Below are positions 27,531 to 32,605 of a stretch of DNA of 34,372 nt, one piece after another. A model generated the notes under the pieces. That model saw nothing but the letters and a program-made list of their open reading frames with translations. It was not told the DNA's origin and made no database searches. The stretch lies in contig JAVEBF010000072.1 in assembly GCA_051941275.1 (NCBI GenBank), positions 1 to 34,372 on the forward strand, read 5' to 3'. The stretch is from Dirinaria sp. TL-2023a (taxonomy: Eukaryota). The position numbers and the translations under genes are program-made. Within the stretch, counting starts at the first letter, position 1; the number at the start of each line of letters is the position of its first letter.

Positions 27531-28754
27531 ATGACGGGCACAGCCCAACCGATCCGGGTTTTCAAGGATAGCAGTGTCCAAGGCCTGACCGAAGGCGATT
27601 CAGGTCGGAACACGGGGCAAGTTAATGGAGACGCCGCACCATCAGTCACGGCCCTTCAACCTCATGGCAACTCGCAGCCGCTTAATCTTGCTCCTGAAGA
27701 GCTCAAGACCAGAGCAAACACTGACAACTTGAACGGCAATGCCAAAAATTCCGGTAGACCGCAAAAGGTCGATCGCTTTGACCCTGATTTTACGCAGAAT
27801 GTCATCAACGCTACTGGTCCTAAAACATCCCCTCGAATGCGGCAGGTCATGGCAAGCTTAATTCGACATGTCCATGACTTCGCGCGGGAAAACGAAATTA
27901 CGTTTGATGAGTGGATGGCAGGTTTAGAAATGGTGAATGCTCTTTTTCCCACCATGACCATTTCCATTCCTGCTCACGTGCGGCGTGTATAGATCAATGA
28001 AGCGGGCCGGATGTCAAACTCTGTGCGCAACGAAGGCCAGCTTCTGTGTGATGTCGTTGGCCTCGAATCCCTCGTCGACGAGATAACCTATAAACTGACC
28101 ACGGAAGCTGCCGACCTTCCCACTGCTACGGCGGTTCTCGGGCCCTTCTGGCGCGCTGACGCCCCTCGTCGGAAGATGGACGATACAATTGTGCACAATA
28201 TCCCTGACGGGGACCACACATACATGTACGGCGTAGTCAAGGACTACATCACCGGTCAACCGGTCGAGAATGCCGAACTAGACGTATGGCATACAGCCCC
28301 GAATGGACTCTATGAGCAGCAAGATGAGAACCAAATTGACTACAACCTCCGTGGGCGCTTCACCACTGGACCTGATGGCCGCTATAGCTTCTACTGCCTC
28401 CGGCCCACATCCTACCCGATTCCTTACGATGGGCCAGCCGGCAAGCTGTTGCAGCTCCTCGACCGCCATCCTATGCGACCAGCACACATTCATTTCATCA
28501 TTAGTGCGCCAGGCTACAAACCTATCGTTACACAGATCTTCGATCGAAGGGACAAACATATCACGAATGATGCAGTGTTTGCGGTGAAGGATAGCTTGAT
28601 TGTGGACTTTGTGCCTCGGAAAGGAGACAGCAAGGCGAAGTTCGAACTAGAGTATGATTTTAAGGTGGCGACATTTGAAGAGGCGCAGAAGAATAGCGTA
28701 GCAGGGACCACAGCCGAAAGTGCCAGCTATGGAGCCGAAGCCATCCGTTCCTGA
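27531..28754 (+). CDS. Intradiol ring-cleavage dioxygenase (fungal catechol/protocatechuate type); exons 27531-27932, 27993-28754
   Basis: LIRHVHDFARE, LGPFWR, Fe ligands in GLYEQQD, SYPIPYDGP and RPAHIH; VTQIFD, DAVFAVK; intron 27933-27992. Confidence 0.93.
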
Positions 28755-29095
28755 GTCCATATCCGGTAGCAGAAGGTTGTTTTCATGATGGAAAAATATC
28801 CATGTAGAAAGGAATTCATACTGATTATCCCCATGTTTGCCATGACATATCCCAGAATGCATGTGAAAGACATGTTGAGAGAGAGTGAAATAAATACGTA
28901 TCTCGCATGCGAGGCTCAGGCAAGAAAAGGTGTTGCCAAGCAACGCCAAGTCGGTCCAGGTGTCCGAAACGAGCTCGAAGCAGTTAGCGTATTTCAGCAA
29001 TTTGCACTATTTATGCGACGCTCGCGACTTTCTCTTTTCTTGCTGTTTCATCATCAAGCACTGATAAAGCCAGGAACGTCTGACTTACCGCCATC

Positions 29096-31349
29096 ATGTC
29101 GTGGCGTACTCAAGGCATCACAGGTTCGAATAACATCCCTCTTGGGACTCGACGTAGATTTGGAGGTGACTCAGGTTCGCCTGCCGATGATGGAGGCTAC
29201 AATCCTGCTCAGCCTCTTACTGGCACGCCCGATGGAAAGCGTGGACGTAGCCCCGAGAGAAGTACGTCTCGCCTGAATTTACTGCAAACTGATCATCCTA
29301 ATCCGAACATAGCTGAGCCGGTTGATGGAGGAGAGCGACGACGCAAGAAGAGGAATCGATGGGGAGATGCTGCAGAAAACAAAGCTGCGGGCCTGATGGG
29401 TCTACCTACTATGATCAAAGCCAATATGACAAATGAACAACTCGAAGCTTACACTTTGCATTTGCGCATTCAAGAAATCAGTGAGAAGTTGCGAATTAAC
29501 GATGTTGTTCCAGCAGAAGGTGATAGGTAAGCTAGCACGTTCCCCACCCCTAGACTTCGAGCTTCATAGCTAACCCGGTTTCTCTTAGGTCTCCTTCGCC
29601 TCCGCCTCAGTACGATAATTTCGGCCGTCGTGTAAATACTCGCGAATACCGTTATCGCAAGCGCCTTGAAGATGAACGTCACAAGCAAATCGAGAAGGCC
29701 ATGAAGATTATTCCCAATTATCATCCACCATCTGACTACAGACGCCCAACCAAGACACAGGAGAAGGTCTATGTGCCGGTCAATGATTATCCGGAAATTA
29801 ACTTCAGTATGATAACTAACCCTCTAACTCCTAACATCTCCTTTGTTGCCCCTGCATTTCTTTTCTTTTTGCTACGTAGAGCATGCTTCATTACATGACT
29901 CTTCTACAACTACTAACCCCTAACACCGTAAAAACCGTTATAACTTCGAGAAGCATTGACTAACACTTAGCTCTTGCGTTGCAATCAAAGTTGGCCTACT
30001 CATCGGACCTCGTGGAAATACATTGAAAAAGATGGAGACTGAATCACAGGCTAAAATCGCCATCCGTGGAAAAGGATCCGTCAAGGAAGGAAAAGGTCGT
30101 TCTGACGCAGCTCACACCAGCAACCAGGAAGAAGATCTACATTGTCTGATCATGGCCGACACCGAAGAGAAGGTGAATAAGGCTAAGAAGCTTATCCACA
30201 ACGTCATTGAAACTGCAAGCCTCCCATACATTCCTTGGTGCCGATGGTGTGCTAAACGTGATCAGGCTGCCTCGATTCCCGAAGGGCAGAACGAGCTCAA
30301 GCGCAACCAACTGCGTGAGCTGGCAGCTCTCAACGGAACTCTGCGTGACGACGAGAATCAAGCTTGCCAGAACTGTAAGATCTTATTGGGACTCATTCGC
30401 GGAAATCATGCTAAGTCTCACCCTTTCACAGGCGGCGAGATTGGTCATCGCAAATACGACTGCCCACAGCAACGTAACTTTACCGCCACTATCGTCTGCC
30501 GCGTTTGTGGGAATTCTGGACACATGGCTAGGGATTGCCCGGACCGTCAACGTGGAGCCAGCTGGCGCAACGATGGGCCCATGCCCGGTCGTCCAGCAAT
30601 TGGTGGAGGCGATGCTGTGGATCGCGAGTATGAGGTGAGTTATCCCACTCCTCCTTTGCTTTTCCGAACATTTACTAAACTCACATCTAGCAACTCATGA
30701 ACGAACTCTCAGGTGGAGCCCCTAACGGCGCCGCTCCACAACGCATTGAAGCTGGACCTGGTGGTTACGGCCAAGACGGGGATAACTACGGAGGCGGAGA
30801 GCGGGACCTCAAGCCTTGGCAGCGTGGTCCGACGGGTGCCGCGGCCCCCTGGCAGCGTGGCGGAGATGATCGTCGTGACGACTACAGCCGTGAGGGAGGG
30901 TCTGCTGCACCGTGGGCTACTGGTGGCCGTGGAGGCGACAATTATGGCGGATATGGACAAGGCGGTTACGGCGCTCCTCCGGGCAGTTCTGCTCCTTGGC
31001 AGCGACAGCAAGAAGCTCCACCGCCCCCATCCGGCGGACAAGGCTACGGTTATGGCGGATATCCTGGTGGTTACGGAGAGTCCGGTGGCGGCTACGGCAG
31101 CATGGGAGCTCCGCCAGGCCTCGGTGGTGGTGTTGGTGGTCTGGGTGCTCCACCAGGTCTTGGATCAATGTATGGAGGGTATGGAGCAAACGGAGCGGAT
31201 GGAGGTGCTCCTCCTCCACCGCCTGGAGATGCTCCCCCACCTCCGGTAAGTCTTGCAAACCCTTCAATTTATCATCATGCGGTCCCATTCTAACTGCGGT
31301 ATAGCCCCCGAGCGACCAACCGCCGCCGCCACCTCCTCCAGGTTCATAG
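29096..31349 (+). CDS. MSL5: Branchpoint-bridging protein (BBP/Msl5/SF1); exons 29096-29261, 29313-29526, 29589-29806, 29991-30214, 30266-30374, 30432-30634, 30691-31245, 31305-31349
   Basis: ULM RRRKKRNRW; RSPSPPPQYD; KH domain YPEINF|IGLLIGPRGNTLKKME...IRGKGS; QUA2 NELKRNQLRELAALNGTLR; two CCHC knuckles (CQNCGEIGHRKYDC, CRVCGNSGHMARDC); Gly/Pro-rich tail. Confidence 0.96.
29807..29990 (+). promoter_or_regulatory. BBP intron 3 carrying six CTAAC branch-point motifs and two decoy TAG acceptors
   Basis: CTAAC at 29816, 29824, 29831, 29913 (within TACTAAC), 29920 and 29960; TAG at 29877-29879 and 29968-29970; frame-restoring acceptor is AAG at 29988-29990. Confidence 0.75.
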
Positions 31350-32605
31350 GTTTCACAGCTCCGCTGCTAGCCCAGATGTGGTCGGAACCGCGGCTCACAA
31401 AACGGGCGTCTGATAGGAGGCATCATTCAACTACGTCAGTCTGGTGATCTATGCCATAGAAGAGGAATTCGCTACTGCTGGTCTTCCTTCAATCGTTTGC
31501 GGCTTGATTCGCACTCGGCGGGGTACGGAAGCGCTGATCATCAGATATGGAATTGCTCGTGTACTCTACTCTAGTCAAACTGCATGCGTTACAGAGAGAA
31601 AGTTGATCACCACTTATTATTAGAGCTGCAGCGCGCTATGCCGGTCATACTTGGGTCCTGGGTGAGATGATCAGCAGTCGAAACGGTGTCCACGGGCATG
31701 TCCGGCGCTGAGCGGTGTGCAAACGCAACCAATTATTGATTGAGTGAGATGTGCGAAGCAGGAGAAACATGCCAGCCGTCCTCGCATGGCCCGTGGATAA
31801 TCCTTGAACCCTTTAGTTCCAGCTTCTACATTACCTTAGGTATGGTAAGGTAGTACCCTGTTTTGGTATCGGCAGCCCCCACGGATCTCCGACAAGGTCT
31901 GTAGAGCTACGAAGCAGGTCCGAGGCAGCGTAAAAGCAAAAGAGAAACCAGTCAGCAAACGAAGTGGTAGGTATTGCCGTAGTCAGCAAATACCCGACTG
32001 GAAGGATGAAGAAGTACGGGGTGCAGGGCATGGAAGGTGTGCAGGCTGTCCAAATAATAGGGGCGTTTACAGTGCGTCGGTAGAGTTAGCCGACGGTTGA
32101 AGTTGAAACAGATGAGATCGCTCGCTTAGGTAAGCGTGGTATGTAAGGTAGGTATGTAAGCTCCCTGACGCAGACCCGAGGGACCGCACAGACTAAGGTT
32201 AGGGTTATCCGGATCTCCTTCATCAAACCAACCTTTGATTAAAGTATCATTACCATCTCCATCACTCATCCCGTCCGTCCTTCAGCCCTTAGAGTACTAT
32301 TTATCTTTAGCAGAATCCACGGCACAAACTGTGACCACTCCCATATCTCGCTTCTCTTCCCTCCCTGTCTAATGGATCCTGCTTCTCATAGTGGAGATGA
32401 AGGAGTGGTAGACACGGGCAGACCGTTTCATCCTCACAGATTATCCGCAACCCAGCACACCGCGTCTGAGGCGGGAAAAACAACCATGTTCAATGGCCTA
32501 TCCGAAGCCTGTTCAGTCCATGAAGCCATCCTATCGCCGTTGCCCATAATCCCCCGAAAGCTGCTGTGTTTCGAAGTTCAAACTATCATAATGGTCGCCT
32601 CATCC

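Follow-up and report, generated by a model that had tools for sequence, protein, structure and literature searches.

PTB, SR proteins and hnRNPs autoregulate by unproductive splicing, in which alternative splicing is coupled to nonsense-mediated decay (AS-NMD). In the decoy-exon model of detained introns, conserved splice-site-like elements within the intron would bind splicing factors non-productively. The branch-point-binding protein BBP/SF1 recognizes UACUAAC-type RNA through its KH-QUA2 domain, and CUAAC cores match this consensus. Budding-yeast BBP, Msl5, is said to act in the nuclear retention of unspliced pre-mRNA, a role credited to work of Rutz and Seraphin in 2000, and to our knowledge the MSL5 gene of S. 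cerevisiae lacks an intron like the one described here. This intron is the third of the SF1/BBP (MSL5) orthologue found in a DNA stretch of 34,372 nucleotides (nt) from Dirinaria sp. TL-2023a (contig JAVEBF010000072.1 of assembly GCA_051941275.1, positions 1 to 34,372 of the forward strand), which is called the window below.

The systems that come closest to this locus are found outside the BBP gene. The tandem UACUAAC repeats of Gomafu/MIAT are high-affinity binding sites of SF1 that retard splicing in vitro (Tsuiji et al. 2011, PMC3116199), detained introns occur for example in OGT and SF3B1 (PMC12017769), and a stem-loop with a concealed branch site tunes unproductive splicing of SF3B3 (Li et al. 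2024, PMC11162794). Intron 3 of the BBP gene is read here, with a probability of roughly 0.55, as an ancient, conserved and deliberately inefficient intron that would set the level of BBP by negative feedback. Its conserved elements are copies of the recognition sequence of the encoded protein, located where no branch site could function or where the acceptor is covered, and the intron that holds them is retained and has a weak acceptor and a weak donor context (GTATGA after an A at -1). Negative feedback is the best reading of this organization.

Conserved anatomy of intron 3

The gene at 29096-31349 is a member of the SF1/BBP (MSL5) family in which the SF1-HH domain, a KH domain with its GPRG loop and the CCHC knuckles are all present (Pfam matches SF1-HH 9.2e-13 and 1.3e-23, KH-I_KHDC4-BBP 3.1e-20 and zf-CCHC 1.2e-11). 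The KH exon matches the KH-QUA2 structures of yeast Msl5 (PDB 4WAL/4WAN, 6e-21) and human SF1 (PDB 1K1G, 2e-19). Named relatives of the protein are annotated as branchpoint-bridging protein or splicing factor 1, and it is nearest to those of Lecanoromycetes (~75%). The gene model extends from an ATG at 29096 to a TAG at 31347-31349 and has seven introns of 51, 62, 184, 51 (GC-AG), 57, 56 and 59 nt, respectively.

A preliminary description of the window, made from its letters, had singled out intron 3, and its account of the local features agrees with the gene model. The intron breaks the KH region before the GPRG loop, separating INF from IGLLIGPRG, and its 184 nt contrast with the 51-62 nt of the other six. 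It holds six CTAAC motifs, which start at 29816, 29824, 29831, 29913, 29920 and 29960, and a TAG at 29877-29879 that follows a pyrimidine-rich run. Retention gives a premature stop at an in-frame TGA (29896-29898), and the AAG ending at 29990 is the acceptor that restores the frame, its 29806>29991 junction being found in RNA contigs.

Over the whole window CTAAC occurs 27 times on the + strand and 13 times on the - strand, and intron 3 is the sole spot on either strand with at least three of them per 184 nt. When the intron was shuffled 20,000 times with its dinucleotides preserved, the count never reached six (maximum five, four times), nor did it in 20,000 mononucleotide shuffles (maximum four). 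The clustering of CTAAC in intron 3 of the window exceeds chance. Tandem Repeats Finder detected no tandem repeat at 29700-30100.

Metagenome contigs were scanned with the exon-4 peptide, which gave 411 confirmed stretches; the best 80 were kept and the exon peptides were placed on them by tblastn. Since selection was by similarity to the query exon (exon 4 identity 93-100% in the 80 loci), the comparison covers Pezizomycotina-like loci. Judged by their nearest named proteins, an approximate labelling, they resemble five classes of this group, with likeness to Helotiales, Pleosporales, Lecanoromycetes, Eurotiomycetes (Endocarpon-like) and Sordariomycetes (Apiospora- and Anthostomella-like). 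Exons 3 and 4 are found in order in 76 loci, 73 of which carry an intron of 137-264 nt at the exact position of intron 3; the exceptions are L075, with an intron of 97 nt, and L043 and L064, which have none. Removal of identical copies left 60 distinct loci, and the anatomy of the intron was established from the window plus 57 loci (58 sequences).

Intron 3 is present in 58 and absent from two of the distinct loci, its median length being 185 nt and its number of CTAAC 4.5 on average (five motifs in 23 loci, four in 20, six in nine, three in four, two in one and none in one). Short length and lack of conservation mark the neighbouring introns in these genes: intron 2 (present in 50, absent from five) has a median of 53.5 nt and a mean of 0.40 CTAAC, intron 4 (45 and 15) of 52 nt and 0.44, and intron 5 (23 and 30) of 50 nt and 0.35. 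Intron 3 is thus lost less often than introns 4 and 5, and in 57 of the 60 loci it is three to four times as long as the local introns. The preliminary description had put forward the conservation of CTAAC clusters in orthologues as a check of its proposal, and this check has a positive outcome, with the long intron, its position, the cluster and the weak AAG acceptor recurring in 57-58 of 60 loci.

At the 5' end, the donor reads GTATGAT in 38 and GTACGAT in ten of the 58 sequences, and the border with exon 3 is TTCA/GT or TTTA/GT in all aligned loci. The A at position -1, which is invariant, is there because exon 3 ends with the first base of an Ile codon. CTAAC motifs are then found at +6 to +11 in 55/58 (offset +10), at +17 to +21 in 45/58 (offset +18) and at +24 to +40 in 33/58; at least two of them lie inside the first 45 nt in 52/58, with a spacing of 7-9 nt. 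When the introns are anchored at the donor and compared ungapped, positions +7 to +22 hold 1.23 bits per position in intron 3 versus 0.14, 0.19 and 0.18 in introns 2, 4 and 5, respectively. The donor-proximal region of intron 3 is conserved beyond neutral expectation. The putative branch A of 90 flanking introns bearing a CTRAY motif is at least 25 nt from the donor (5th percentile 36, median 40), so that the A residues at +13 and +21 of intron 3 are too near the donor to act as branch sites; no donor is found inside the intron upstream of this cluster. Positions 30-70 have a mean pyrimidine fraction of 0.71 over the 58 introns and the tract is predicted to be unpaired in most folds, while the G fraction at positions 7-60 is 0.08 versus 0.15 for the whole intron.

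In the 3' half, a middle (T)CACTAAC block aligns in most loci and is followed by the likely working branch site, ACTAAC, named BP1. An exact CTAAC lies 24-36 nt from the 3' end in 55/58 sequences, the distance from the BP1 branch A to the acceptor is 20-29 nt in 58/58, and an AG (AG1) is present 5-7 nt 3' of this A in 56/58, within a conserved block ACTAACACTTAGCT. Flanking introns span 8-23 nt from branch A to acceptor (median 11, 90 introns), so that AG1 is just too near the branch and the acceptor in use is unusually far from it; AG1 (TAG 29970 in the window) is probably skipped for its closeness to the branch. Use of this TAG had been expected to give a premature stop. This holds for the window, where the frame is shifted by 20 nt and a stop follows after 18 codons, but not for every sequence: in 13 of the 56 with AG1, its distance from the real acceptor is divisible by 3, which would keep the frame, and AG1 was rejected as a conserved frameshifting dead-end acceptor. 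The real acceptor is AAG in 43/58 introns and CAG in the other 15, with no TAG, while AAG is found in only 6/118 flanking introns (Fisher 9e-22; two each among 50, 45 and 23 introns 2, 4 and 5). The last eight bases of the intron are TACTAAAG in 20 and ACTAACAG in 14 of the 58 sequences. CTAA occurs within the final 9 nt in 42/58, so that a branch-like motif, often ACTAA, abuts the productive splice site in most relatives. Retention of the intron leads to a stop within it in 57/58. Another conserved block, TTGCT..(A)GCTTTTGA..TCA, is seen in many loci 5-35 nt upstream of BP1 (window 29940-29957).

Directly upstream of the middle (T)CACTAAC there is a predicted hairpin whose sequence varies by lineage and whose stem extends into the CAC or CACTA of the motif. 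In a Helotiales-like set of 14 sequences RNAalifold finds 17 pairs, 3 of them compensatory, and in a Lecanoromycetes-like set of eight sequences 12 pairs with 5 compensatory. The hairpin of the window is weak (-9.3 kcal/mol, z -1.44). It is recovered in lineage-wise alignments only, no global consensus fold being obtained over the 58 introns or over 22 mixed sub-regions, and support for a conserved hairpin adjoining the middle branch-like site is moderate. The candidate role of the intron as host of a small RNA, such as a small nucleolar RNA, was rejected, as there is no consensus fold over the 58 introns and no Rfam family in the intron; a single chance match to a microRNA model was found at 29000-31500, in exon 7 (E 0.68).

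Table 1. Position of intron 3, its elements and its surroundings in the window.
Feature	Position	Strand	Description and basis
SF1/BBP (MSL5) orthologue, coding region	29096..31349	+	8 exons, 577 codons plus stop; stop-free spliced model, Pfam, RNA junctions
Exon 3	29589..29806	+	ends with ...EINF and the first base (A) of an Ile codon
Intron 3	29807..29990	+	184 nt, GTATGA..AAAG; spliced junction and retained contig both seen in RNA
Donor-proximal CTAAC cluster (29816, 29824, 29831)	29816..29835	+	candidate branch-type A at +13, +21 and +28
Pyrimidine-rich, G-poor tract 3' of the cluster	29836..29875	+	base composition over 58 introns; mostly predicted unpaired
Hairpin-forming stretch with TAG 29877-29879 and TGA 29896-29898	29876..29907	+	folding; weak in the window
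Middle branch-like pair, TACTAAC 29911-29917 and CTAAC 29920-29924	29911..29924	+	sequence, alignment of loci
BP1, GACTAAC, likely working branch site (A at 29963)	29958..29964	+	27 nt upstream of the acceptor; conserved position, predicted branch
AG1 (TAG)	29968..29970	+	7 nt 3' of the BP1 branch A; conserved; no joint using it among the RNA joints listed
Productive acceptor AAG	29983..29990	+	AATCAAAG in the window; 29806>29991 RNA junction
Exon 4	29991..30214	+	KH domain from (I)GLLIGPRG on

Intron 4 of the window (30215-30265) is of the GC-AG type (GCAAGC..CAG), its 30214>30266 junction is seen in RNA contigs, and the GC donor is also found in loci L025, L026 and L035. Some deposited BBP gene models of named fungi are short (e.g. 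291, 302 and 392 residues) and have a partial domain set, which may result from mis-annotation around the unusual intron 3. The upstream frame at 27993-28754 of the + strand codes for an intradiol-type dioxygenase (Pfam Dioxygenase_C 8.2e-40, Dioxygenase_N 1.1e-07) that is unrelated to the BBP intron.

Retention of intron 3 in RNA

Four runs (X1-X4) of one lichen metatranscriptome sample were read as assembled contigs. Their contigs carry a copy of the BBP gene that is ~98-99% identical to the window. Exon positions differ by ~1-2% and 3 nt are missing at window 31320, in the part coding for the proline-rich carboxyl terminus; its source is therefore a different strain or a near relative. The contigs contain each of the seven modelled junctions, including 29806>29991 and that of the GC-AG intron 4.

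A contig of 244 nt (29777-30020) reads through intron 3, and intron 3 alone has such a contig. Its depth and that of the spliced junction are 29 and 12.5 in X1, 31.4 and 12.2 in X2, 27.3 and 13.6 in X3, and 8.3 and 3 in X4, which gives retained shares of 0.70, 0.72, 0.67 and 0.73, respectively; the exons flanking the intron have depths of ~48, 44, 44 and 11 in the four runs. Over the other six introns, the binned depth equals that expected from the exon parts of the bins and intron cover fits zero, which rules out DNA contamination as the origin of the retained contig. The contig differs from the window at two positions, both in the pyrimidine tract, so that all six CTAAC are kept. Neither an alternative 3' junction nor a joint of partial excision is found for intron 3 among the RNA joints listed. 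In this sample a single intron is thus kept in otherwise spliced BBP transcripts, as in detained introns, and a premature-stop isoform of BBP is present in the RNA, as in unproductive splicing. That the retained form is so abundant at steady state suggests that it is held back (detained) and not rapidly degraded.

Contigs of the relatives provide further candidate transcripts. L043, which lacks introns 2-5 (all those checked) and whose exons are 97-100% identical to genomic locus L052, is, as judged from sequence, evidently the spliced version of a gene from an L052-like genome. L028, L029 and L066 lack introns 2, 4 and 5 (intron 5 cannot be scored in L028) and keep intron 3, of 207, 245 and 189 nt, respectively. 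Their intron-bearing relatives L080, L069 and L074 are 77-82% identical (~82% between L028 and L080), and the simpler reading is that these three are transcript-like contigs retaining intron 3, the other possibility being a lineage-specific loss of the other introns.

Locus L003 has a different organization. The first 118 nt of this contig (1-1068) are the same as its last 118 nt, which defines a circle of 950 nt. It comprises a portion of exon 1 and exons 2-4, with intron 3 kept but introns 1 and 2 removed, and L007 is a near-identical genomic locus. L003 looks like the product of a back-splice (circular RNA), although as a single contig it could be an artefact.

Candidate self-regulation of BBP and rival explanations

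Negative feedback through intron 3 would operate as follows. When abundant, BBP would occupy the donor-proximal CUAAC sites, probably with its partner Mud2/U2AF bound alongside to the adjoining pyrimidine tract, and would also occupy the site overlapping the acceptor, which would be masked. The donor would be trapped in a dead-end, commitment-like complex, the intron would be kept and no new BBP would be made. When BBP is scarce, the real branch site alone would be used and productive mRNA would result. In the retained RNA the reading frame stops ahead of the KH RNA-binding domain, which this RNA cannot encode. As for the fate of this RNA, its high level would, if anything, fit better with nuclear holding than with rapid NMD.

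The autoregulation by decoy branch sites that the preliminary description had proposed thus gains from the conservation of the intron and from its retention (~70% of depth in the one sample). The clustered UACUAAC of Gomafu RNA, which binds SF1 and slows splicing, is a precedent for it (PMC3116199). The redirection to dead-end acceptors that was part of the same proposal is not upheld: TAG 29879 is unconserved and lies in a lineage-variable arm of the hairpin, and the joints listed hold no alternative 3' junction.

Several points weigh against the reading of intron 3 as a negative-feedback device. The RNA support stems from one sample (four runs), seen as contigs and not as reads, of a strain that is ~1-2% off the window, and the classes of the loci are those of their nearest named proteins alone. 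The donor-proximal sites conserve the CUAAC core and not the full UACUAAC, so their affinity may be modest, and the branch-like motif next to the acceptor is degenerate in the window itself (AATCAAAG). The device is not universal. L064, a 36-kb contig with other introns, lacks intron 3, and the 97-nt intron 3 of L075 (1402-1498) opens with a strong donor, GTAAGT, and is devoid of CTAAC. Feedback could also have the opposite sign, with clustered sites recruiting BBP to aid a weak intron. Finally, the motif also pairs with U2 small nuclear RNA (snRNA), so that the factor sensed could be the U2 small nuclear ribonucleoprotein (snRNP). The L075 intron keeps the same ending of branch, AG and AAG (CTAAT-AG...AAAG), which hints that this 3' arrangement is older than the decoy cluster; on sequence grounds, L075 may be the older state and L064 a loss. 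Intron 2 of L064 measures 102 nt.

If U2 were the factor sensed, intron 3 would report general spliceosome capacity, the CUAAC motifs trapping U2 snRNP at unusable sites and the output reflecting the balance of BBP to U2 or the splicing load. The conserved CTAAC motifs are indeed also the pairing site of U2, and the conserved ACTT after BP1 (A87 C81 T70 T74) would lengthen the pairing with the U2 bases 5' of GUAGUA. There is moreover a precedent in the U2-sensitive hairpin with a concealed branch site that regulates SF3B3 (PMC11162794). The UA upstream of the donor-proximal CUAAC is however unconserved (T50 and A54 at site 1, C82 and T82 at site 2), which leaves 4-5 base pairs, and the host gene codes for BBP itself, so that self-recognition is simpler. 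Sensing of U2 is considered unlikely. It is quite unlikely that the retained RNA is itself the product, either as a nuclear sponge for BBP, maybe circular, or as mRNA for a truncated U2AF-binding amino terminus without the KH domain. Such a product would suit an RNA that makes up ~70% of junction depth, the binding of SF1 by clustered UACUAAC in Gomafu (PMC3116199) and the circular permutation of L003, where exon 4 runs at its end into a site of exon 1 that is preceded by 'ctctag' in L007. Yet the stop reached on retention lies anywhere between 18 and 207 nt and there is no conserved tail, L003 is one contig that may be an artefact of assembly or reverse transcription, and a moderately expressed gene with a few sites in each transcript would yield a sponge of little capacity.

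Intron 3 might also be an ordinary constitutive intron in which the extra CTAAC are redundant branch sites that aid splicing of a long intron and are conserved for that reason. The middle CTAAC and BP1 are at usable distances, and the spliced junction is the sole one seen across the intron. This explanation is nonetheless very unlikely: the best-conserved sites are those too near the donor for use, a weak AAG acceptor is conserved, intron 3 alone is retained, and its length, which in 57 of 60 loci is three to four times that of the local introns, is not required by a branch-site role. It is extremely improbable that intron 3 is a nested intron (stwintron) or contains a poison exon, with internal splice sites served by the multiple CTAAC. 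The length of intron 3 is about that of three ordinary introns, and the window has TAG 29879 after the pyrimidine tract and a GTAAAA at 29929 that could delimit an exon. These two elements are unconserved, an internal donor-like hexamer GTRNGY is found in 11/58 introns and a strong one in 4/58, the 5' cluster has no donor upstream of it within the intron, and full excision or full retention are the only outcomes among the joints and pieces listed. On these grounds the stwintron (no conserved internal donor), the poison exon between TAG 29879 and GTAAAA 29929 (both elements unconserved, no supporting joint among those listed) and a decoy exon inside the intron were all rejected.

Negative feedback by BBP remains the preferred reading, and it can be extended, tentatively and with more doubt than confidence, to a titration sensor of free BBP with multiple sites. 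Decoys at donor and acceptor would hold nearly finished transcripts in the nucleus as a reservoir, to be spliced post-transcriptionally when free BBP falls, which would give fast homeostasis of the initial step in branch-site recognition across most filamentous ascomycetes; the same RNA, perhaps circular as in L003, may buffer BBP in trans. The nuclear reservoir would draw on the known pre-mRNA retention activity of BBP.

Relation to known systems

BBP/SF1 makes the first branch-point contact in every intron, and control of its own level is undescribed in the literature searched. In the full-text literature searched, outside which lie most subscription journals, self-regulation of SF1/BBP/Msl5 at the level of its pre-mRNA is described neither for fungi nor for other organisms. 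A deeply conserved intron of misplaced branch signals would amount to a natural experiment, bearing on the properties that render a branch site usable, on how occupancy by BBP commits or blocks donor and acceptor and on how unspliced RNA is held. In practical terms, a 184-nt intron ending in AAG is easily mis-called in annotation, and intron 3 offers a simple reporter of splicing capacity for filamentous fungi, including lichen fungi and plant pathogens.

Like the proteins that autoregulate by AS-NMD, BBP has a pre-mRNA with conserved copies of its own recognition motif and an isoform with a premature stop. In contrast to them, BBP is the core branch-point binder and the motifs mimic a core splice signal where it cannot work, and the output is retention of the whole intron instead of a poison exon or an alternative site. 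Intron 3 shares with detained introns that one intron is kept in otherwise spliced transcripts. It differs from decoy exons in having no conserved internal donor, the candidate decoy being a branch site and pyrimidine tract beside the real donor.

The clustering of branch-consensus motifs where no branch site could be used recalls Gomafu. Gomafu is a vertebrate non-coding RNA that acts in trans, while the BBP cluster is in cis, fungal, and has the CUAAC core two or three times. The SF3B3 gene is similar in that it codes for a branch-recognition factor and has a conserved hairpin adjoining or covering a branch site; there the hairpin controls a poison exon in animals, while in BBP it has moderate support and no poison exon is found. 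The retention role of yeast BBP would, if it acted here, explain a stable pool of retained RNA, though in yeast it is a general surveillance activity. Autoregulatory unproductive splicing was thus already known for other splicing proteins, and what appears to be new is the candidate decoy-branch-site intron of BBP.

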